This document shows, in pieces, positions 3,083 to 23,205 of a stretch of DNA of 28,322 nt. Location: IMG/VR virus record IMGVR_UViG_2778261641_000008; one strand, given 5' to 3'. Within the stretch, counting starts at the first letter, position 1, and every line of letters begins with the position of its first letter. Both the position numbers and the translations under genes were made by a program. A model generated the notes under the pieces. It did not search any database and was not told the DNA's origin. It saw nothing but the letters and a program-made list of their open reading frames with translations. The stretch is from a virus (taxonomy: Duplodnaviria; Heunggongvirae; Uroviricota; Caudoviricetes).

Positions 3083-3343
3083 TTAATTCTGAGGTAAAGG
3101 CAAACTCATCTGATTGTTTCCCCTGTGTGAAGCTGGTAGCTCATGCCACGGGATACCTTCTGAAGAGTAAACGCCGGAGGCGTGTTTCGATGTGAATTTA
3201 TGGAAAGCTTCCAGTGTTGAGAAGCATACGCCGCATTCCAGATTGTTACACTGGTAATACTTTTGCCGCACGGTGTTTGAATCATTTTCCGGACGACTTG
3301 TGCGGATACGGGCAGATGCGCCACAAAGCGGACAACGGAACAT
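3083..3343 (-). CDS. ogr: Ogr/Delta-type zinc-finger late transcription activator
   Basis: Translation starts MFRCPLCGASARIRTSR...YYQCNNLECGVCFSTLE, the Cys4 pattern and N-terminus characteristic of P2 Ogr. Confidence 0.85.
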   Translation of the reverse strand: MFRCPLCGASARIRTSRPENDSNTVRQKYYQCNNLECGVCFSTLEAFHKFTSKHASGVYSSEGIPWHELPASHRGNNQMSLPLPQN

Positions 3344-3534
3344 AGCGACCTCCCTTAACGTGGTGTTGCCGCTATTCTAGATTGTACGATCCCTAATTCC
3401 AACTAACAGCTCGCTCTGTGCGAAGAGTGAAAATTGAACTTTCAATAGTTGTTGAACTTCCATACATCCAATGTGAAAATTCATACGTTCATAATAGTTA
3501 AAATTTAAAATATTGTATATCAGGTGAATAAAGC

Positions 3535-4557
3535 ATGGGAAGAGATATAACGCTGTACCCTAAAAAAGCAACTAGAAACGAACTTAAAAATTACCTTGAA
3601 AATTTAGGTTTTAAAAGGTGTAAACATTTGTGGGAATGGCCCCAAGGAACGTTGAATTACTCTTGGTTTGATGATACGGACTTCAAATCTACAGATGGAG
3701 TTTCGGCTGATATATATCCTGTTTCAAATGACGAATTACACATATCTGGTAATAAATGGGCATTGCATGTGCGTAATTTATATAGCGCTAGTTGGCATGA
3801 TGTAAAAATGCTTAATGATGTTCTAAAAGGCGCAAGGAGTCTTTTTGGTGGAACACTTATAGGTGATTATGGGAAAAATAGGTACGCTCCTCTATGGAAG
3901 GATTCTAGTAGTCCGATCAGTCGTGGCATTTCTTCAATATTTAATCATGTCCATCATGAGATTTCCGCTGTTAAACATGCCTTACCTGAACCTTCTATTA
4001 AATTAAACCTACCGGAAGATGGCGGTTTATCCGAATACTTTGATTACATGCAATGTATGGATCCCAGTAGAGTTATATATAATGGATTAGTACCTTTTGC
4101 GGTTGCTATGTTTGAATACTTTTTCTCTAGAGCTTTTCAAATACTTATAAAGTACGATCCTTTCGCAATAGCAAAAAGAACATCGTATAAGCAAAAAGTT
4201 GATTTTGACATTCTGCTTGAGATAGAGAAAGGAAATATTTCAATAGAAAGTGTTATTGCAAGAAATTACACTTTTCAAAACTTAACCCACCTAAACAAAG
4301 CATATAAAGAGTGGCTGGATATAGATGTGAGAGCGATTCTTTATAAGAAAAAAAGAATTGGAAAATCAGTTGATTTTCTTGAGAATCGAATTTCTGAAAT
4401 CATACAATATAGACATGGGATAGTTCATCACTTTGAGTTGGATAGGACCTTAAATCGGGATGGATATATTCATATATTAGATGCGATAGAAAAAAGCATA
4501 ATTGAATTTATCCATTACATAGAAGGCAAATACAAATTTAAATTAAATGCGTATTAA
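3535..4557 (+). CDS. Hypothetical AT-rich cargo protein (340 aa) with C-terminal RHGIVH (Rx4H, HEPN-like) motif; candidate abortive-infection or defence protein
   Basis: Single long ORF in a markedly AT-rich island. AGGTGA RBS 7-8 nt before ATG at 3535. Hairpin at 4586-4609 downstream. Not recognisable as any P2 core protein. Motif QYRHGIVHHF near the C-terminus. Confidence 0.6.
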   Translation: MGRDITLYPKKATRNELKNYLENLGFKRCKHLWEWPQGTLNYSWFDDTDFKSTDGVSADIYPVSNDELHISGNKWALHVRNLYSASWHDVKMLNDVLKGARSLFGGTLIGDYGKNRYAPLWKDSSSPISRGISSIFNHVHHEISAVKHALPEPSIKLNLPEDGGLSEYFDYMQCMDPSRVIYNGLVPFAVAMFEYFFSRAFQILIKYDPFAIAKRTSYKQKVDFDILLEIEKGNISIESVIARNYTFQNLTHLNKAYKEWLDIDVRAILYKKKRIGKSVDFLENRISEIIQYRHGIVHHFELDRTLNRDGYIHILDAIEKSIIEFIHYIEGKYKFKLNAY

Positions 4558-4585
4558 GCAATCAACCTTACATAGGGATGACAAA

Positions 4586-4609
4586 GTCCGCTTCTGACAC
4601 GGAGCGGAC
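4586..4609. terminator. Stem-loop between the convergent 3535-4557 gene and D (GTCCGCTTC...GGAGCGGAC)
   Basis: Imperfect 8-9 bp inverted repeat followed by a T-rich stretch; lies between two convergent stop codons. Confidence 0.4.
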
Positions 4610-4677
4610 CGTCGTTTATGTTTAATTCTATACTGTAAACTTGCCAGTTTAAGTTTGAGCTAATATGTCTAAGTTGC

Positions 4678-5787
4678 TCACTCTGTTTCTGCTATCCATT
4701 CCGGGATTTTTGCCTCAAGCTCAAGCTGTGTGGTAAAGCCGCTGTTATCAATGGTGTGCTCGGCTTTCGCAATAATCCAGTCCTGATTATCAATCTCGCT
4801 TTTAAATCCTGTTACCGTGCCATGCATTTCGGGGTAGAGTTCTGCACGTCCACGCACCAGCGTGATGGAAAATAATGCGGCTCCGCGTTGTAGCTGCTGC
4901 CACTTTGCCGCCGCTGCGCGTCTTGCTGCCTGCTCGTTCTGATAAGTCTTGCGTAACACAAACACATTGCCTTCCGCGCCTTCCATATAATCACCTTCAC
5001 GGCTGCTGCTTTTCTCCTTTTTGGGTTTTGGCGGTTTGCGGCGTTTCACGCTGACTTTTTTCTTTTTCCCGTAATTAAGATCAAGCCAGTAAGCGCGTAC
5101 CCCCGTATACGCCTCGCGGTCAGCAATGCGGAACTGATGGCGATCGCCGCTGCTGCGTGTGATGGCGAACGATGGCAACGGCTGGCCCTGTGCGTTCACG
5201 CCACCGCCGGGCATGATGAATAACAGATTACCGCTTTTTACCGTGGTGATTGCGCCCAGCATTTCCGCCATGCGCGTAAGGAAGGACATGTCGCTTTCTT
5301 CAGTCTGGTCGGCGTGGTCGATTTCGATATCCATCAGCATTTCGCTGATTTGCGGTTTCAGGCTGTACCGATGAGCGATGGCGGATACCACACGTTCAAC
5401 GGTCACATCATGCCAGGACGCCTCACGTTTAACATTAAATTCATCCCGAAAATCTGCGCTTCTGGCTGAAACAGTCAGCCTGTCCGGCGGTCCTTCGTGA
5501 GCGATTTCATCAACAATGTAAGTGCCTTTTTCTGTCAGCGGTTCCCCTTTCCAGCCAATGAGAACCGTCAGACGCGCGCCCCGTGGCGGTAGCTGCAACT
5601 GGCCATCGGCATCATCCAGCGTGATGGTGAGCTGGTCCGCCTCAAATCCCCGGTTGTCGGTCAGTGACAGGCTCATCAGGCGTTCTGCCACGCCGGACAG
5701 CGTTTTACCCTCGGCGAGAATATCAAAATCCGGCATTTTCACGGGGTCTGTGCCCTGACTGAGCAATTGCATGGTGGTGTCGGTCAT
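4678..5787 (-). CDS. D: P2 gpD-like tail protein (late control gene D family)
   Basis: ORF track frame 4678-5919. Preferred start is ATG at 5787, preceded by GGGAGGG 5 nt upstream. Protein reads MTDTTMQLLSQGTDPVKMPDFDILAEG, about 369 aa. Confidence 0.85.
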   Translation of the reverse strand: MTDTTMQLLSQGTDPVKMPDFDILAEGKTLSGVAERLMSLSLTDNRGFEADQLTITLDDADGQLQLPPRGARLTVLIGWKGEPLTEKGTYIVDEIAHEGPPDRLTVSARSADFRDEFNVKREASWHDVTVERVVSAIAHRYSLKPQISEMLMDIEIDHADQTEESDMSFLTRMAEMLGAITTVKSGNLLFIMPGGGVNAQGQPLPSFAITRSSGDRHQFRIADREAYTGVRAYWLDLNYGKKKKVSVKRRKPPKPKKEKSSSREGDYMEGAEGNVFVLRKTYQNEQAARRAAAAKWQQLQRGAALFSITLVRGRAELYPEMHGTVTGFKSEIDNQDWIIAKAEHTIDNSGFTTQLELEAKIPEWIAETE

Positions 5788-5944
5788 CTGTTCCCTCCCT
5801 GTGCGGCATGGTCGCATGTGCGTGCGGAGGGGGTTACTGCTTTTTGTTGTCGCCGTGGCGGGAGAATAGCGCAGGGGTGAGATTACGCGCGTGGTGGGTG
5901 ATGATTGTTGCTGAATCATTTAACGGATACAAGGGGCTGAAGCT

Positions 5945-7129
5945 ATGAGTGAAACTCGTTTTCATGGTGCCCGTGTTACGGAAAATACCGACCTGGTAAC
6001 AGCGATTAACGATGTTGATTCCAGCGTTATCGGTATCGTGGCAACGGCGGATGATGCGGACGCGAAGCTGTTCCCGCTGAACAAGCCCACATTGCTGACC
6101 CGCGTCAATGACGTGCTGGGAAAATGCGGAACAACGGGGACGCTTTATCGTGCGCTTAAGGCCATCGCAGACCAGGTGAGCACAAAGGTGATCGTCGTTC
6201 GCGTGGCTGAACACAAAGAAGAAGACGGAAAGACGCAGGATCAACTGGTTATCGGTGGTTCTGAGGATGACGGCAGCTATACGGGGATGTATGCGCTGCT
6301 TGTTGCAGAGCAGGATGAAAGCATCGGATACCGTCCGCGTATTCTGGCCGCGCCGGAGCTGGACACGGAGGCTGTAACAAAATCCCTGTGCGTGATTGCA
6401 GGTAAACTGCGCGCGTTTGTGTATGCCTCATGTCACGGCTGTAACACGATGGCTGAGGCGATTACCTATCGCCAGAAATTCAACGAACGTGAGGTGATGC
6501 TCTTATGGCCGGACTTCATCGCCTACAACCCGAAAAGTGGCAAAAACGAAACGTTCCCCGCGCCTGCCTATGCGTGCGGCCTTCGTGCGTACATTGACCA
6601 TGAGCAGGGGTGGCACAAATCACTGTCCAACGTTCCGGTTAAAAATGTGCTGGGGATGTCGAGGCATGTGTTCTGGTCGTTGCAGGCCGAAGACAGCGAT
6701 GCCAACAGCCTCAACAACAAAGAAATCACGACCATTATTCGTCGCAACGGGTTCCGCTTCTGGGGCAACCGCACACCGGAAACGAACGCCTACATCTTTG
6801 AGGTGTATACCCGAACCGCACAGGTGCTGGCTGATTCAATTGCGGAAGCGCAGTTTGAAACCATCGACAGTCCACTGACGCCTGCGAACGTGAAGGATGT
6901 TATCAGTGCCATCAGGGCAAAACTGGATTCGCTGGTTACTGCCGGGAAACTGATTGGCGCGGAGTGCTGGTATGACGTGGTGGATAACGGCACCACGGAT
7001 TTACGTCAGGGGCGTGTGCGTATTCGCTACAAATATACGCCCGTTCCGCCACTGGAAGACATGGAGCTTTACCAGACGTTTACTGATGAATTCTTTGGTC
7101 CCGCATTTGCGGTGCTGGGAGGTGCCTGA
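5945..7129 (+). CDS. FI: Contractile tail sheath protein (P2 FI)
   Basis: 394 aa; the FPLNKP...GTLY...AIADQ motifs resemble P2 FI. AAGGGG RBS. Stop overlaps the FII start (TGATG). Confidence 0.9.
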   Translation: MSETRFHGARVTENTDLVTAINDVDSSVIGIVATADDADAKLFPLNKPTLLTRVNDVLGKCGTTGTLYRALKAIADQVSTKVIVVRVAEHKEEDGKTQDQLVIGGSEDDGSYTGMYALLVAEQDESIGYRPRILAAPELDTEAVTKSLCVIAGKLRAFVYASCHGCNTMAEAITYRQKFNEREVMLLWPDFIAYNPKSGKNETFPAPAYACGLRAYIDHEQGWHKSLSNVPVKNVLGMSRHVFWSLQAEDSDANSLNNKEITTIIRRNGFRFWGNRTPETNAYIFEVYTRTAQVLADSIAEAQFETIDSPLTPANVKDVISAIRAKLDSLVTAGKLIGAECWYDVVDNGTTDLRQGRVRIRYKYTPVPPLEDMELYQTFTDEFFGPAFAVLGGA

Positions 7130-16864: not shown

Positions 16865-17910
16865 TGAGCAGAAAAAATAAAAAAGTGCGCATGAGTTCAC
16901 GCATTGATCTCGCTGATGCGCTCAGGAAAGAATCATCGCTCAGTGCATTCACATTTGATGGTCCTTATCGCCTGACCGGGCATGACCTGCTGGACAATAT
17001 GTACTGTGCTGATAACGGGCGGTGGTATGAAACCCCGGTGGACTGGTACGGTCTGGCAAGAGCAGCCCGGCAAACGTCCTGGCATCAGTCTGCGCTTTAC
17101 TTTAAGCGCAATGTATTACTCGGTTGCTACATCCCGCACCCGCTGCTTTCCCGGCAGGATTTCTCGGCGCTGGCGCTGGACTGGTTTGTGTTCGGTAACG
17201 CATTCCTTGAGCTTCGAAGCAATATGCTCGGCGAACCGCTTAAATTACGGCACGCACTGGCGAAATACATGCGACGCGGAAGCGATCTTGAATCATGGTG
17301 GTATGTGCAGGATGGCAAGGACGCGTTTCAGTTTCGCCCTGGCAAAGTGTGCCACCTGATGAATCCGGACATTAACCAGGAAATTTACGGCATGCCGGAA
17401 TATCTTGGCGCATTACTCTCGGCCAGCCTGTCTCATTCGGCGGACATGTTCAGAAAACTGTATTACGACAATGGATCCCACGCCGGGTGCATCATCTACA
17501 TCGGTGCAGCGCAGGTAAACCGCGAAAGCATGGACTCCCTGAAAGAAACGTTACAGGGTGCGCGTGGTAGTGGTGCGTTTAAAAACGTGCTCATCCATGC
17601 GCCCAACGGGGGCAAAGAGGGGGTGCAAATTTTGCCGTTCCAGCAGATCACCGCAAAGGATGAGTTCATGAATGTTAAGGCGGCATCCCGTGATGATGTG
17701 CTGGCTGCGCACCGCGTTCCGCCGCAACTGATGGGGGCGATGCCGGGCGAAAAAAGTGCGTTTGGTGATGTGGAGAAGGCCGCGCGGGTTTACGCAATTA
17801 ACGAGCTGATGCCCGTCATGGAGGCCATGAAGCACATCAATGACTGGCTTGGCGAAGAGGTGATCCGCTTTAACCCTTACGCACTGTTAGACACCCAGTC
17901 CACATCCTGA
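16864..17910 (+). CDS. Q: Portal protein, P2 gpQ
   Basis: 348 aa; position and size as for P2 Q; transcribed toward the expected cos end. Confidence 0.9.
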   Translation: MSRKNKKVRMSSRIDLADALRKESSLSAFTFDGPYRLTGHDLLDNMYCADNGRWYETPVDWYGLARAARQTSWHQSALYFKRNVLLGCYIPHPLLSRQDFSALALDWFVFGNAFLELRSNMLGEPLKLRHALAKYMRRGSDLESWWYVQDGKDAFQFRPGKVCHLMNPDINQEIYGMPEYLGALLSASLSHSADMFRKLYYDNGSHAGCIIYIGAAQVNRESMDSLKETLQGARGSGAFKNVLIHAPNGGKEGVQILPFQQITAKDEFMNVKAASRDDVLAAHRVPPQLMGAMPGEKSAFGDVEKAARVYAINELMPVMEAMKHINDWLGEEVIRFNPYALLDTQSTS

Positions 17911-17937
17911 CGCGCTTCGCTTGTCTGCTGCTTCGCC

Positions 17938-17960
17938 GGGGCATAAAAAATTTATGCCCC
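17938..17960. other. 10-bp-stem hairpin (GGGGCATAAA aaa TTTATGCCCC) just after the portal gene, in the presumed cos-proximal region
   Basis: Read directly from the sequence; no U-tract follows. Confidence 0.6.
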
Positions 17961-18363
17961 GACTCTCCAGCTCCTGTATCAGTCAGATAATTTCACGACG
18001 CCTTCCAGTTTATCGCCACCATCGACAGTCAGACTCTTACGCAATCCCACCGCGTTGACTGCATGTTCTCGCCGTCTCAGTGCGATTTTGACGGCCTTAC
18101 CTTTCACCCCATCAAATCAAAAGCCCTCACGTCTTTTTCACGCTCAGCGTGAGAAATACAACCATTCTGTTGTATCTCTGCGACATCGTTCAAGGAATGC
18201 TATTTACCCCCTGAAACGCGGGCTGTTCCCCCGTCACCTGCGCGCAGAAAAAACGCGTTTTTTTGTGCACGTACGGATCCTTGACGGATCCAGCCACCAC
18301 GCGGGCCGGAAGTACAAAAAGTCGTTCAAAAAAATTGTGCAAACTTGTGCACTATCGTGCAAA

Positions 18364-18388
18364 CAAAAAAAGCGCCTTATCGGCGCTT
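18364..18388 (-). terminator. Rho-independent terminator for the 18397-18666 gene
   Basis: On the minus strand, stem AAGCGCC/GGCGCTT with a 5-nt loop is followed by T7 (complement of A-run 18364-18370). Confidence 0.65.
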
Positions 18389-18396
18389 CAAAAGTA

Positions 18397-18666
18397 TCAA
18401 TTGTTGCTGTGTATTAATCGCCAACCACGAACATATGCTTCATAGGCATCTCTGTGCCTTACAGTTCCAGCCTGGCTAAACGGAATGTTAGCTAAAACTA
18501 AATCATTCTGAGCCATAGCGCGTCCTTCAAGCGCATCTTTTATGCCTAGCTCAAAAGCACAGGCAGCGCATTTGTGCCGACCTTCTTGTCCTTGATATTC
18601 AGGGAGAGACAGAAATGTTGGATTATAACGATGAGGGTTCTTGCAAATACCTGTTTTAGCCCGCAC
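18397..18666 (-). CDS. Hypothetical small protein (89 aa) with its own terminator
   Basis: ORF is followed at once by a terminator. Contains Cys/His residues (CKNPH...HKCAAC). Not recognised; the start codon is uncertain. Confidence 0.45.
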   Translation of the reverse strand: MRAKTGICKNPHRYNPTFLSLPEYQGQEGRHKCAACAFELGIKDALEGRAMAQNDLVLANIPFSQAGTVRHRDAYEAYVRGWRLIHSNN

Positions 18667-18785
18667 TTTATTTACCTCATAGGAAAAATATGCGTGCCTT
18701 TACAGAGGTGCGTGTAAGCAATAAAATATACGACGCACATTTTGATTTACTTCGGAAGGCACGCATATCAGGTTAAGTGAGTCCG

Positions 18786-18815
18786 ACCGAGTTTTACGCC
18801 CCAATAGTTGCTGCT
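18786..18815. repeat. 12-bp-stem perfect hairpin (ACGCCCCAATAG ttgctg CTATTGGGGCGT) followed by TTT
   Basis: Read directly from the sequence; in the noncoding stretch between the 89-aa gene and parR. Confidence 0.6.
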
Positions 18816-19030
18816 ATTGGGGCGTTTTGCATGGACAATGCCGCGCAATTATCTTGTCGCTCACAATGCGAACGATCTTACAAAAAGGCACATTACTGTC
18901 AAGATAATTGATCGTTTTAATCGATAGATAATAGACAATCTATTTGTTTAACAGATCGATTATTGAAGTAAGTGTGCCAAGTGGAATGATACTGTCTCTA
19001 TAAACGTGAGCATTTTTCGCGCAGATGCTT

Positions 19031-19342
19031 TTACTCAGGAAATAACGCCCGGATATTCCCAGCCATCTGGCTGGTTATCTTAGCCACTGGTGCAGACTGT
19101 GCTTCAAACTTTTTTGAGCTGATTTGTGTCACAGGTAACATCTCATCATCAGCCCATGCGGCCAGTCGGTAAGCCTCTGCCGGATTCGTCTTCAGAAGTG
19201 CCAGCCCGGCCAGAAAAGCCACGCGTTGGCCGCTTTTGCGGGCTTCTGGTGTAAGGCTGTCCAGCCAGGCGCATGCTTCTCCTTCGTTCTTGACGGCAGC
19301 TGGCTTCAGATAGAAACTTATCCGTCTGGTTGGTGTTGTCAT
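19031..19342 (-). CDS. parR: ParR-like ribbon-helix-helix centromere-binding adaptor
   Basis: ATG at 19342 with AAGGAG 6 nt upstream, 5 nt after the parM stop. N-terminus MTTPTRRISFYLKPAAV...RVAFLAGLAL resembles my recollection of plasmid R1 ParR. Confidence 0.65.
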   Translation of the reverse strand: MTTPTRRISFYLKPAAVKNEGEACAWLDSLTPEARKSGQRVAFLAGLALLKTNPAEAYRLAAWADDEMLPVTQISSKKFEAQSAPVAKITSQMAGNIRALFPE

Positions 19343-19346
19343 TGGT

Positions 19347-20306
19347 TTACTCCTTGTCCATTGCGTACAGCCCATTAACCAGAGCAAACTGTGGCACCCC
19401 GTCCGCGATGAAAGTCGCATTAACTCCGCAGGCTTCGCGGATAGCGGGTGCCACAATCTCCGCCCCGCCACCGACAACCATCACCCGCCCGTAACCCGAA
19501 AAACCCGCCAGCGCGCGGATCACGCGTTGTTTCAGTGTTTCTTCCTTTTCACGAATAACCACCATCAGGCTGTCGTAATGCGCGTCATTGTGGATGTGCT
19601 GGCGCAGCCAGGCTTCATCATGGCGATGTTCGATAATGGTATTGGCGATGTGGTGACTGGTACGCATACCGTTAGTGGCCATCACCGACAGTACGGCATC
19701 GGCCATCAGGGAAACGCCTACGTGTGGATCGCAAAACACCTGGCTGATACCTGCCAGTTGTCCCTGAACCTTTGCCACATCCAGCGTGGTTCCGCCTAAA
19801 TCCACAATCAGCAGGGATTCAAACGGACTCATGTCAGCCAGTGCTTTAAAGCCAGCCGGAATGGATTCAGGCATAACCCGTACGTTACGGATAGTGAATG
19901 CTTCGCCGTTCTGGTACTCCACCGGGCGCATGACGTTCGCTTTTTTGCGGTTGATGTTGGCCATGTCCGGCTGTGCGTTTGTGTCGAAATATTCGCTCAG
20001 TGGCAGGGTGACAACCACATCCACTTCCTGTGGTGTGATGCCTGATTTGACCAGCGCGTGATGAATGGCAATGACATTCACATCGCTGTACTGGTATTGC
20101 GTGTCGGTCGTCTGGACAAAGCGATCGCTGACCGGATCAAAACCATAGCGCACGCCATCAAGCATGTAGTTCGCGGGCTGCGTGCCACCGAACGGCGCAG
20201 ACCATTCCGACTTGAAGCTGTTCGGGCTGATGGCGTTGCGGCGTTCGCCGTTCTCAGTCCATGCCAGCTTGATGTTGGTGGAGCCGTCATCGATACAAAT
20301 TTTCAT
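19347..20306 (-). CDS. parM: ParM/StbA actin-like segregation ATPase
   Basis: 319 aa with IDDGSTNIKL, ISPNSFK, YSDVNVIAIHHAL, DLGGTTLD, VVGGGAE and LVNGLY, the characteristic ParM motifs in the right order. Confidence 0.85.
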   Translation of the reverse strand: MKICIDDGSTNIKLAWTENGERRNAISPNSFKSEWSAPFGGTQPANYMLDGVRYGFDPVSDRFVQTTDTQYQYSDVNVIAIHHALVKSGITPQEVDVVVTLPLSEYFDTNAQPDMANINRKKANVMRPVEYQNGEAFTIRNVRVMPESIPAGFKALADMSPFESLLIVDLGGTTLDVAKVQGQLAGISQVFCDPHVGVSLMADAVLSVMATNGMRTSHHIANTIIEHRHDEAWLRQHIHNDAHYDSLMVVIREKEETLKQRVIRALAGFSGYGRVMVVGGGAEIVAPAIREACGVNATFIADGVPQFALVNGLYAMDKE

Positions 20307-20338
20307 GTCGCTTTTCCTTATGTTGATTAATTAATCGC

Positions 20339-20373
20339 TTACGGGATTCTGAAATCCCGTTTTTGCCTGTTTT
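20339..20373. repeat. Copy 1 of a 35-bp hairpin element (TTACGGGATTCTGAAATCCCGT + T-rich tail), between A stop and parM start
   Basis: 8-bp stem ACGGGATT/AATCCCGT followed by TTTTTGCCTGTTTT. A perfect 12-bp palindrome GATTAATTAATC at 20325-20336 is adjacent. Confidence 0.8.
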
Positions 20374-20382
20374 ATGCGCGCT

Positions 20383-23205
20383 TCATATATCGCGGCGCGT
20401 TTTTTGCTCATTTACGGGATTTGTGAATCCCGTTTCTGTCTGTTTTTTGTTTCCACTGGTCAGGCCACCCCGCAGCAGGTCTGCTTTGCGGCGGGCGTGT
20501 TCAGTGGTTTCACTGATTCTCTGTGCGTGCTCTGCGTCGCGGATGGCGCGCAGCATGTCAGAAAGCACGGTAACGGGTGTTTTCATGGTGTTCTGGTCCT
20601 GCTGAAGTGTGGATGCCAGGCGTGCGGCGGCTTCGGGGTCTGATGCCCCCAGCTGTTCCAGATAGCTGGCGACCGGGTTATGGCGGATCTCCGTGCTGCT
20701 TACGCCGTGGTTACGGCTCAGGCGCTGCCAGAGCTGCGTGATCCGGCTGTCCGGTCGGGTATCCGGTTTGCGTACAATTTCAAATCCCTGCGGTGCAATG
20801 ATGCTGCCGTCGACGTACAGACTGCCGCCCCGTAACAGGTGCTGCATCTGCTGTTCACCGATATGCAGGCCGAGAGATTCAGCAGACTCCCGCCATTCTT
20901 TAGCGAGTAACTCGTGGTTATCAGGCAAAGGCCGTGGCTGTTTGCGGCTCTGTGTCCAGTTCTGCATTTCATCACTGCTGTTTTTTGCCTGTTTGTCACG
21001 CAGCGAACGCATCAGCGCCCGGCGTTCGTGCCGTTTCAGTGAGCGCATCCATTCATTCACGTCAACGCCGTCAGGAAGCTGCGGCCACGGTGCTGGCCGT
21101 TCTTCCAGCTGTTCTGTCCCGTTGTTGTCCGTTTCCTGTACACGGGGACAGTTATTGCCACGAGTCCAAGGGGCGGCAGGGCCGCCCTGAAGGTCAAAAC
21201 CATTTTCGCGGGCGCTGTCTTCCGCTTCCGGTTTACGTCTTACCAGCTTCCAGTTATCCGGATGTGTGCACACACGGGAAGACTCCCCGATGAGCGGTGA
21301 CCAGATCCCGTAAATCTGTACGCTCTGTTCGCCGTAATCGTTCAGCTCATCTGCGAGGTCGTAGGCGGTGCGAATCAGGTAGTCTTTGCGTGGAACAAGT
21401 ACGCCGCCCTGTTTTTCAATGTAGGAGGCAAAACACCCGGCATCAGCGGCAGCGAGCACTGCATCCATTGCGTCATCCTTCAGTCGTTGCGGGCCTTCCG
21501 GGTTGCGTGCCATCTGGCTGGCAAGGCGGCGCAGTTCACGCCACACCTGACGGGAGGGGATGCCAAAGAACTGGAACTGGCGGACCCGGTGAAGGCGCGC
21601 CCAGCCGATGGCGCGCTCCACGCTCTCGGCCATTGATTTTCCGGTTTCGTGGTCAACGCGTGGCTTGCCCGTTTTCGGGTCGATACCATCCACGGCGCGG
21701 CTGTCCAGGTTCTTTCCGATGTAGGTGGCGATGTAGCTGGTTGGCGTGCCTTTTGAGCCGTCGACGTACTCCGCCTTAAAACGCGGAGTTATGTCATCGC
21801 CCAGCTCGTGGCGGTCTTCCTGAATGGCAATATCGCAGACGTGGGACACGATGGTTTCAATCTCGTCCGGATGTGCAAAGACCATCATATGCCAGTGCAC
21901 AGTGCCGTCATGGTGAGGCTCCACCGTGCGGATGCCATACCAGCGAAGACCGTCGCGGTTCAGTTTTTTGCGGACCGCCGCAAAAAACGTGTTAACCAGG
22001 TAATCGCTGGAGTCGCGCATGGTGGCCCCGTTCCATTTGGGATTCGGATGACCGTTCTCTGTTGTGGCGTGGTATTTTGACGGGCAGGTGACAGTCAGAA
22101 ACACCGCTCTGTCGCCACGGGCTTCGGCCAGAAGTTCCAGTCCCTTCATGGTGGCCATCATTTCTGCCTTACGGTGAACCGGGTTACTTACTCCCGCGTA
22201 ATATACCGTCTCGAGATCAATCGTGAACCCGTCTTCATTTTCCAGCATGAAACTTTTCAGGAAATCGCGTGTTTTCTCGCGCTGTGCGCGAAACTCGCTT
22301 AACGCGTCCTGGCTCAGATAGGGTGATGTTTTTCTGGAAACCAGACAGGCGGCGCGGAGTTGTTCTTCTCTCCACTCGCAACGTAACAGCCACAGTTTGC
22401 GTTTCCACCATTCCGCACAGGTCAGGCGAAGGATTGCGCCCGGCAGCAGCTCCGTGTCCGGTTCGTTCCTCCGGTCTTTGTCTGTTGTCAGTGCGTCATA
22501 ATGTGGAGGCATGGCGTGCAGGTGTAACGCCATGCGGGCCAGCATCTGATACGCCTTCAGCGTTACATCCATGGTCAGTTCGCCATCAGTAGCGCCAAAG
22601 CCATCGCAGAGTTTTTCGAAGGTGCTGCTGAACATCGCCGCCGTCATGGTGGCCAGCGTCTGTATCTGGTGTTTGTTGAGCTGCGGCAGGTAAAGCAAAT
22701 CGTCCAGGCGTTCGCGTCCGGCAAGGGAGCGATAACCCGGTGTCAGCCAGCGGTGATCGGTGCGGTCCAGACGTTCGAATATTTTGCGCAGGGTTCCGCG
22801 CGCGTAGCGTTCCGCCTGCCAGCTCTTTTTGCCTTTCTGACGATCGGCTTCCTGCTTCTTGCGCAGGAAGGAGAGGTGGCGAATAAGCGGATCGCGCAGA
22901 TAGGACGGCAGCAGGCGCAGCGAGGCCATGGCTTCATCCACCGCGCCGCGTGCCTGTTTTCTGGCGTCTCCTGCCAGTGTGATGGTTTTGTCCTGTTTTT
23001 CCTGTGCGTCCAGGCTTTTATTAATCAGGTTGCCCAGCGGCGTGGCGGAGAACGCCGCATCAGCCATTTCCTGGCGGCGCTCGTTCTCTACCCGGTAGGC
23101 ATCCAGCCAGGAGGAAAGCGCGGATTCAGGAGCGGAGATCCCCGTTCCTTCACGCCCCACTGCGTGGCGCGGTTGTTGCCAGTCCCTGATGTACTCTGCC
23201 GTCAT
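20383..23205 (-). CDS. A: Replication initiation endonuclease (P2 A, rolling-circle HUH family)
   Basis: 940 aa with the HUH-type motif TVHWHMMVFAHP; position downstream of the early operon as in P2. Confidence 0.85.
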   Translation of the reverse strand: MTAEYIRDWQQPRHAVGREGTGISAPESALSSWLDAYRVENERRQEMADAAFSATPLGNLINKSLDAQEKQDKTITLAGDARKQARGAVDEAMASLRLLPSYLRDPLIRHLSFLRKKQEADRQKGKKSWQAERYARGTLRKIFERLDRTDHRWLTPGYRSLAGRERLDDLLYLPQLNKHQIQTLATMTAAMFSSTFEKLCDGFGATDGELTMDVTLKAYQMLARMALHLHAMPPHYDALTTDKDRRNEPDTELLPGAILRLTCAEWWKRKLWLLRCEWREEQLRAACLVSRKTSPYLSQDALSEFRAQREKTRDFLKSFMLENEDGFTIDLETVYYAGVSNPVHRKAEMMATMKGLELLAEARGDRAVFLTVTCPSKYHATTENGHPNPKWNGATMRDSSDYLVNTFFAAVRKKLNRDGLRWYGIRTVEPHHDGTVHWHMMVFAHPDEIETIVSHVCDIAIQEDRHELGDDITPRFKAEYVDGSKGTPTSYIATYIGKNLDSRAVDGIDPKTGKPRVDHETGKSMAESVERAIGWARLHRVRQFQFFGIPSRQVWRELRRLASQMARNPEGPQRLKDDAMDAVLAAADAGCFASYIEKQGGVLVPRKDYLIRTAYDLADELNDYGEQSVQIYGIWSPLIGESSRVCTHPDNWKLVRRKPEAEDSARENGFDLQGGPAAPWTRGNNCPRVQETDNNGTEQLEERPAPWPQLPDGVDVNEWMRSLKRHERRALMRSLRDKQAKNSSDEMQNWTQSRKQPRPLPDNHELLAKEWRESAESLGLHIGEQQMQHLLRGGSLYVDGSIIAPQGFEIVRKPDTRPDSRITQLWQRLSRNHGVSSTEIRHNPVASYLEQLGASDPEAAARLASTLQQDQNTMKTPVTVLSDMLRAIRDAEHAQRISETTEHARRKADLLRGGLTSGNKKQTETGFTNPVNEQKTRRDI
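20412..20446. repeat. Copy 2 of the same hairpin element, inside the last codons of gene A
   Basis: TTACGGGATTTGTGAATCCCGTTTCTGTCTGTTTT, about 30 of 35 positions identical to copy 1, spaced 73 bp; it encodes the TGFTNPV residues of the A C-terminus. Confidence 0.8.

Follow-up and report, generated by a model that had tools for sequence, protein, structure and literature searches.

The viral sequence analyzed here (IMG/VR record IMGVR_UViG_2778261641_000008) is a 28,322-nt stretch, hereafter the window, in which a replication endonuclease gene (A) is followed on the minus strand by the actin-like segregation gene parM and then by the small gene parR. A pair of similar repeats lies immediately 5' of parM and straddles the stop codon of A, and this repeated element is the subject of the present analysis. 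Over positions 18900-20900 the window was 99.9% identical to the chromosome of Escherichia coli B7A, and its identity to Xuanwuvirus (P2-family) genomes, phage P88 among them, was 96-98%; these values place it as a P88-like prophage. The gene order was taken from the B7A annotation mapped onto the window (Table 1); the remaining early genes and cox are upstream of A, and the repressor and integrase genes are on the plus strand, beyond cox.

Table 1. Positions of the parMR cassette, its repeated element and the flanking genes in the window.
Feature	Position	Strand	Basis or remark
Terminase and portal genes	end at 17910	+	B7A annotation mapping
Stretch without annotated gene (1.1 kb), between parR and portal	17911-19030		B7A annotation mapping
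parR, 103 aa, R1 StbB/ParR family	19031-19342	-	Pfam PF10784
parM, actin-like segregation ATPase, 319 aa	19347-20306	-	Pfam PF06406 and PF21523
AT-rich box: palindrome GATTAATTAATC (20325-20336) overlapping ATTAATCAA (20323-20331)	20323-20336	-	
Downstream repeat copy, A-parM intergenic	20339-20376	-	repeat and dyad scan
Downstream core GGG-N10-CCC	20343-20358	-	conserved at -52 from parM ATG, 73 bp spacing
Central core, 35 bp, between the copies	20377-20411	-	A stop codon, imperfect inverted repeat, most of a 17-mer (20398-20414)
Last 21 codons and stop of gene A, KKQTETGFTNPVNEQKTRRDI	20383-20448	-	read from cassette DNA, not ancestral A
Upstream repeat copy, within the 3' end of gene A	20412-20449	-	repeat and dyad scan; outer edge is the cassette boundary
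Upstream core GGG-N10-CCC, 16 bp	20416-20431	-	conserved at -125 from parM ATG
Replication endonuclease gene A	20383-23205	-	Pfam PF05840 (GPA)

By domain content, parM and parR are bona fide genes of the R1 family. ParM matched PF06406 (StbA_N, 1.8e-82) and PF21523 (2.9e-68) over its whole length and was 46-52% identical to plasmid ParMs, and ParR matched PF10784 (Plasmid_stab_B) at 9.8e-24; parR starts 4 nt past the parM stop codon. ParR is presumed to be the centromere-binding adaptor, and we take it to have a ribbon-helix-helix fold, from knowledge of the R1 StbB/ParR family and from its Pfam membership; a comparison of ParR with PDB by sequence gave no match. The locus contains the three components of a type II (ParMRC) system, namely an actin-like ParM, a small ParR directly downstream and a repeated cis site upstream of parM, the last being counted by the presence and conservation of its repeats and not by function.

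The repeat search returned one two-copy direct repeat family, with units of 38 nt that were 82% identical and 73 bp apart from start to start. Each unit contained an inverted repeat with 8-bp arms and a 4-nt loop, ACGGGATT-TGTG-AATCCCGT in the upstream copy (20414-20433) and ACGGGATT-CTGA-AATCCCGT in the downstream copy (20341-20360). An earlier note on this DNA had described a duplicated 35-bp hairpin; its two copies and their 73-bp spacing were recovered, but the unit is 38 nt long and the two loops show its degenerate consensus to be slightly off. The pattern ACGGGATTNNNNAATCCCGT, with up to two mismatches, was found at two sites in the window, both in the copies, and at none in 100 shuffles. 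The copies straddle the A stop codon (20383-20385) as that note had placed them, one being intergenic and the other encoding the residues TGFTNPV of A.

An A-rich 17-mer occurred three times (20358, 20398, and 20431), the occurrence at 20398 lying between the repeat copies, and the upstream dyad is preceded on its 5' side by an A-rich tract (parM sense strand). The AA/TT tracts were phased at ∼10-10.5 bp (P ∼0.003, relative to mononucleotide rather than dinucleotide-preserving shuffles), and similar phasing was seen upstream of R1-like, IncL/M, and IncI-gamma parM genes. The imperfect inverted repeat of the central core is GC-rich (CGCGC...GCGCG); in variants and in a Hafnia relative it changes such that G-U pairs can still form on the sense strand of parM (CGTGC/GTGCG; CACGTGC/GTGCGTG), the events being few. 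In total, the element extends over 142 bp between the parM ATG and the edge of the cassette, and is made of a 38-nt repeat, the 35-bp core, a second 38-nt repeat, and 32 bp (20307-20338) carrying the AT-rich box and the ribosome-binding site (RBS).

The copies were found to be inherited with parMR and not with gene A. A comparison of the upstream context in 80 IMG/VR loci that share this ParM singled out two that differed, one with a shorter A followed by an extra open reading frame (ORF) of 155 aa (L166) and one with a different A subtype (L176). In both, homology to the window started abruptly at ∼20448, where the upstream copy has its outer edge, and continued through parM; different upstream ORFs thus finished in the same tail as gene A. 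A junction-centred search of E. coli genomes yielded three P88-like prophages without parMR (L224, L225, and L226), in which the A gene had 92.6-95.7% DNA identity but matched only down to ∼20430-20491, and in which the cargo was a KAP NTPase, Dam and an AAA ATPase, or hypothetical genes, respectively. Their A proteins diverged at the C-terminus after about ARRKA. The earlier note had proposed this comparison of A 3' ends, reasoning that the same two copies in the same place without parMR would argue against a role tied to the cassette; both copies were absent from all three prophages, which favors the link to parMR. L224 retained a decayed relic of the upstream copy only (AAACGGAGTTTGAAAATCAAATGA), implying that selection preserves the copies only in the presence of parMR. 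More distant A homologues (≤42% identity), from 186-like Klebsiella phages and from phage Cartapus, have no parMR either, and nothing similar was found after their A genes.

The C-terminus of A pointed in the same direction. The A protein of the window ends in the peptide given in Table 1 (its ending being TGFTNPVNEQKTRRDI), and variants of the core alter the last residues (RRDI vs. CHKT or RHKT, as in TRHKT). A 1-bp deletion upstream of the copy in L223 moves the end into another frame (RNGIHKSRK), and in the Hafnia relative L218 A stops at a TGA in the upstream dyad loop (NNKQKRDS). The tail peptide is thus variable, with three different endings over the kept DNA of the upstream copy, which indicates that selection acts on this DNA and not on the peptide. 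Together with the boundary in L166 and L176, the absence of the copies without parMR and their absence after distant A homologues, this variability argues that the copies belong to parMR and are co-inherited with it. The earlier note had attributed the remodelled C-terminus of A to the duplication; the last 21 residues do derive from cassette DNA, but by read-in to the cassette and not by the duplication itself. Because the cassette abuts gene A, the A frame enters the upstream half of the putative parC and ends at the first stop of the core.

A search for relatives with the single ParM gave only near-identical loci, and distant relatives were reached through homologous proteins and then the contigs encoding them. 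In 4/4 lineages, exactly two GGG-N10-CCC motifs were found within 200 bp upstream of parM, 72-73 bp apart, relative to a background rate of 0.18 per kb in the window. Counted from the parM ATG, the motifs were at -125 and -52 in the window (E. coli, P88-like; ParM 100%), at -124 and -51 in Hafnia L218 (ParM 94%), at -131 and -59 in Plesiomonas L229 (ParM 63%), and at -128 and -55 in Hafnia L230 (ParM 62%). The cores and their spacing were kept although the surrounding sequence was not visibly alike across lineages, and the L229 and L230 cassettes occupied the same GPA-to-portal slot of P2-like prophages. Hafnia, Plesiomonas, and Serratia all have P2-like prophages with related cassettes in this position.

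The dyads themselves differed in extent. In L218 (ParR 75%), both copies read GGGATT-N4-AATCCC at 73-bp spacing, the outer ACG/CGT pairs having been lost, with an identical G-to-A change in each copy. The inner 10 nt were not palindromic in L229 and L230, and all folds had 10-nt loops; plus-strand folds reached -4.1 to -5.1 kcal/mol in three of four cases and -8.4 in one, and the antisense strand lacked a T-rich tail, with 3-7 T among the 15 nt that follow the stem. What is conserved is therefore a GC-clamped dyad pair with seven helical turns between its members and a fixed distance to parM, which is the signature of a protein-binding architecture and not of a hairpin or terminator.

This distribution also bears on whether the copies are a functionless footprint of the arrival of the cassette, a duplication or scar left by insertion, as the earlier note had suggested among its options. 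The upstream boundary of the mobile unit does coincide with the end of one copy, and 82% identity is compatible with an old duplication. However, parMR has both copies on one side, within the moving unit, and none after parR, and so they are not flanking target-site duplications; moreover, the cores and the 72-73 bp spacing have been kept across diverged lineages, and the relic decayed in a prophage that lost parMR. A scar is therefore very improbable, and this part of the earlier note is not supported.

The same relatives weigh on the terminator-like appearance of the copies, which the earlier note had noticed in the plus orientation although both neighbouring genes, A and parM, are on the minus strand. 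The copies resemble Rho-independent terminators in the window sequence only: read on the plus strand, each has a stem of 8 bp, four of them G-C pairs, with a loop of 4 nt and a T-rich tail behind it, the terminator scan scored both, and RNA folding gave about -10 to -12 kcal/mol for both, whichever strand was taken. Plus-strand intrinsic terminators at this place would stop antisense transcripts through parR and parM before gene A; such transcripts could come from cargo genes, or from read-through past cos out of the late terminase-portal operon. No other strong plus-strand terminator was predicted between the portal stop and the copies, and all common variants of the upstream copy keep plus-strand pairing via G-U. 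That proposal, also made in the earlier note, fits the window but is unlikely. The nearest plus-strand gene end is that of portal, none lying within 2.4 kb, and the T tail is the complement of the phased A-tracts, present in other parC regions too. The plus-strand fold of the downstream hairpin weakens to -3.3 kcal/mol in 14/84 loci of the same lineage. The equivalent positions of L229 and L230 have neither a stable hairpin nor a T tail, though cores and spacing are kept, and the terminator look is therefore lineage-specific. Nor does a terminator model predict a tandem pair exactly seven helical turns apart that moves with the cassette. Terminator function may be a secondary use or a lineage-specific side effect.

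Within-lineage variation, examined in the same 84 loci (66 unique sequences), did not single out an RNA structure. The stems showed single transitions only and no compensatory pairs, and strand preference was inconsistent, the upstream copy favoring plus-strand G-U and the downstream copy sense-strand G-U; for both reasons, RNA structure was neither supported nor excluded by this variation. As RNA, the copies could act in the minus-strand A-parM-parR transcript as a processing site for RNase III or RNase E or as a stabilizer or, in a variant of this idea, as a switch between local hairpins and long-range pairing of one copy with the other that encloses the A stop codon. Single copies gave sense-strand folding z-scores of -4.5 and -2.5, the 149-nt region folded at -36.8 kcal/mol (z = -5.4) with the copies paired with each other, and common variants of the downstream copy keep sense-strand pairing via G-U (-8.8 to -11 kcal/mol). 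Nevertheless, the commonest variant of the upstream copy (T to C, 32/84 loci) weakens the sense-strand stem, compensatory double changes numbered zero, hairpin potential was lost in the Plesiomonas and Hafnia relatives in which the dyad cores persist, and neither hairpin reaches the parM RBS. Taken jointly, the processing and switch versions of an RNA role are improbable.

Next to the copies, the palindrome GATTAATTAATC of the AT-rich box is just 5' of the parM RBS (AAGGA, 20315-20319; start codon 20304-20306), where the earlier note had seen it. Perfect 12-bp palindromes numbered five in the window compared with a mean of 7.2 in shuffles, which is chance level, and the palindrome is lost in Hafnia L218; with this frequency and its absence in Hafnia, it was rejected as a conserved operator. 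ATTAATCAA and an AAGG RBS were kept in 3/4 lineages, L218 keeping ATTAAT and the RBS only, and the box is a possible -10 or leader element of parM.

The repeat copies were interpreted as a putative bipartite parC-type centromere and operator of the prophage parMR cassette, to which ParR would bind; we give this reading a probability of roughly 65%. It is the option of a parC-like centromere or ParR operator site from the earlier note, and it is favored since the copies move with parMR and their core and spacing are kept down to 62-63% ParM identity. Read along the minus strand, the type II cassette would consist of parC, parM, and parR, in that order, and cover ∼19031-20448. Each copy would offer a GC-clamped dyad, here extended to ACGGGATT-N4-AATCCCGT, with A-tracts on its 5' side. 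As 73 bp corresponds to ∼7 helical turns, the two dyads would be on the same face of the DNA, flanking the 35-bp core. ParR would bind each dyad as paired dimers, probably spreading over the phased A-tracts, and its clusters would fold the DNA into a compact complex that presents the ParR C-termini and captures the ends of ParM filaments. Occupancy by ParR would also lower or tune the expression of parMR, as is the case at R1 parC. The repeat, its co-inheritance with parMR, the conserved core and spacing, the helical phasing, and the variable A peptide are observations, and ParR binding, centromere activity, and autoregulation are what we infer from them; the hairpin or terminator appearance would be a by-product of dyad symmetry and flanking A-tracts.

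The closest parallel is parC of plasmid R1, which comprises 159 bp with two sets of five 11-bp iterons flanking a 39-bp promoter core, is strongly curved, binds about one ParR dimer per iteron, and has its promoter repressed by ParR (PMC2241845). Like R1 parC, the element is immediately upstream of a homologous parM (46.5% identity) and parR (PF10784), is of similar size (∼142 bp), is bipartite with repeats on both sides of a core of 35-39 bp (PMC2241845), and carries helically phased, A-rich sequence on the sense strand of parM, from which curvature is implied. The position immediately 5' of parM is also that of parC in the R1-like, IncL/M, IncI-gamma, and phage D6 loci, and alignment with these plasmid and phage parC regions showed no similarity beyond the RBS region. 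Unlike R1 parC, it has two 38-nt units with GGG-N10-CCC dyads instead of ten 11-bp direct iterons, its upstream half is within the coding region of another gene (A), and no core promoter is predicted where one is documented in R1. The two sets of five 11-bp iterons flanking a par promoter that characterize an R1-type parC were not found here.

A cis site made of few repeats has a precedent in srpC of SXT/R391, whose direct and inverted 13-bp repeats are bound stably by SrpR only as pairs (PMC4489591). The srpMRC locus is likewise a type II partition locus on an element normally integrated in the chromosome (PMC4489591), and its cis site is built from a few direct and inverted repeats, a precedent for few dyad sites. 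In contrast to the element described here, however, SrpR is unrelated in sequence to R1-type ParR, srpC comprises 251 bp with four repeats of 13 bp, its host is an integrative and conjugative element and not a phage, and srpC was tested by electrophoretic mobility shift assay and plasmid stabilization. Among prophages, CGP3 of Corynebacterium encodes an actin-like filament with a DNA-binding adaptor and cis sites (AlpAC/alpS), proposed to move or position phage DNA (PMC4446434; PMC5539076). The CGP3 actin-like protein and its adaptor are only distantly similar and fall outside the R1 family; the system has another host and another type of phage, and the sequence of the alpS sites is unrelated to that of the copies.

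Several results weigh against the centromere interpretation. The repeat search found no 11-bp iteron family, only the two 38-nt units and the third A-rich 17-mer, and the phasing test was made against mononucleotide shuffles. The sigma-70 scan predicted no promoter in 20300-20460, and ParR autoregulation is for this reason a conjecture. Candidates picked by eye (TTCAGA-16-ATTAAT, and TATATG/TATAAG-like -10 sequences in the core) were weak and inconsistently conserved, and no promoter is claimed. By analogy with R1, the central core could hold the par promoter, and parMR may be transcribed by read-through of A from the early operon or from a weak promoter near the ATTAATCAA box. A Serratia relative (ParM 58%) has different GC-cored dyads (GCCG-type), 55 bp apart, although the N-terminal segment of its ParR, RKISFYLKP, is similar, and hence a simple match between ParR segment and site fails. 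Single uncompensated changes in the dyad arms were found in ∼40-45% of the loci at each copy, showing that the outer arm positions are tolerant. The literature search found no publication on a P88-type parMRC or its cis site.

In ParR itself, the N-terminal RRISFYLKP was identical in 10/10 full-length variants shown (42-98% overall identity). The C-terminal half (3' half of the gene, window 19031-19290) was hypervariable among prophages with ParM 98-99% identical, and several phage genomes lost DNA homology to the window at ∼19288, inside parR; both suggest frequent recombination within the gene. The last residues were retained as NIRALFPE or variants of it, this tail being kept wherever ParM was of the P88 type. 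In some E. coli prophages (L220 and L221, 4309-4437), parR is directly followed by a 42-aa ORF with a weak match to StbA_N, the N-terminal domain of ParM, which looks like the remnant of a second parM gene.

The possibility that the copies are a P2-type replication-origin nick site was rejected, as the nick-site homologue lies within A at a distance of ∼700 bp. The nick sequence of the P2 ori, GCGCCTCGG/AGTCCTGTCAATAAC (APRSPVNNC), aligned with A residues ∼676-686 (AAPWTRGNNC); the aligned segment, GGPAAPWTRGNNC, is encoded by GCCGCCCCTTGGACTCGTGGCAATAACTGT on the minus strand at window ∼21150-21185, which is likely the nick region of the replication origin.

Junction DNA of the parMR cassette (at least 90% identity) was present at 1543 places in 1372/5426 complete E. 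coli genomes, including O157:H7, enterotoxigenic (ETEC), and extraintestinal pathogenic (ExPEC) lineages. An exact scan for ACGGGATTNNNNAATCCCGT over the genomes of 185,579 species was uninformative, returning mostly unrelated chance hairpins in many phyla because the pattern is too short for a database of that size; a Trabulsiella match (L071) was unrelated, and only L079 was the same element. This is a 226-kb contig labelled Vagococcus sp. WN89Y (NZ_JBQPOM010000071.1; L079/L125), which carries a P88-like prophage with a ParM 97% identical to that of E. coli and is probably a contaminated or mislabelled assembly and not a Gram-positive host. A complete P88-like genome of 34,461 bp was deposited as a circular 'plasmid' of E. 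coli Z1323PEC0009 (NZ_CP148288.1); it spans the integrase to the Com/methyltransferase end, carries A-parM-parR, and is joined at the att ends. The circle fits an excised or episomal form in which partition would matter, or could be assembled induced phage DNA.

The slot between parR and portal holds variable cargo, as seen when the same slot was compared in L214-L232. Relatives carry there a KAP P-loop NTPase, Dam with an AAA ATPase, HicAB, an Rrf2 regulator, a single-stranded DNA-binding protein (SSB), a helix-turn-helix (HTH)/M78 peptidase pair, an ASCH protein, or an Ogr/Delta gene. The slot resembles the P2 tin/old hotspot for accessory and defence genes. Elsewhere in the window (∼3100-6650), the B7A annotation has an invertase-like recombinase-family gene adjoining tail-fibre and tail-fibre-assembly genes in opposite orientations, with two tail-protein pseudogene fragments; the segment looks like an invertible tail-fibre (host-range) region.

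A repeated site upstream of a parMR operon is to be expected; what is new is the two-dyad architecture, its overlap with gene A and donation of a tail to it, and its conservation in widespread integrating P2-like prophages. P88-like phages, although they integrate, might use the candidate two-dyad ParMRC to place or partition the circular genome once it is excised or replicating, in a plasmid-like carrier state or at the establishment of lysogeny or at induction; such a use has been shown for srpMRC of SXT/R391 and proposed for AlpAC of CGP3. This suggestion is tentative and somewhat doubtful, as is the idea that ParR occupancy could couple replication and partition; since the putative centromere overlaps the stop region of gene A, such occupancy could feed back on expression or termination of the early operon. 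For annotation, variable gene A C-termini in otherwise near-identical prophages would be explained by a tail read from putative centromere DNA. If the interpretation is true, a compact two-dyad architecture would join the known range of type II centromeres, and the two GGG-N10-CCC dyads 73 bp apart would be a concrete, mutable target for asking why an integrating phage keeps a plasmid segregation machine.

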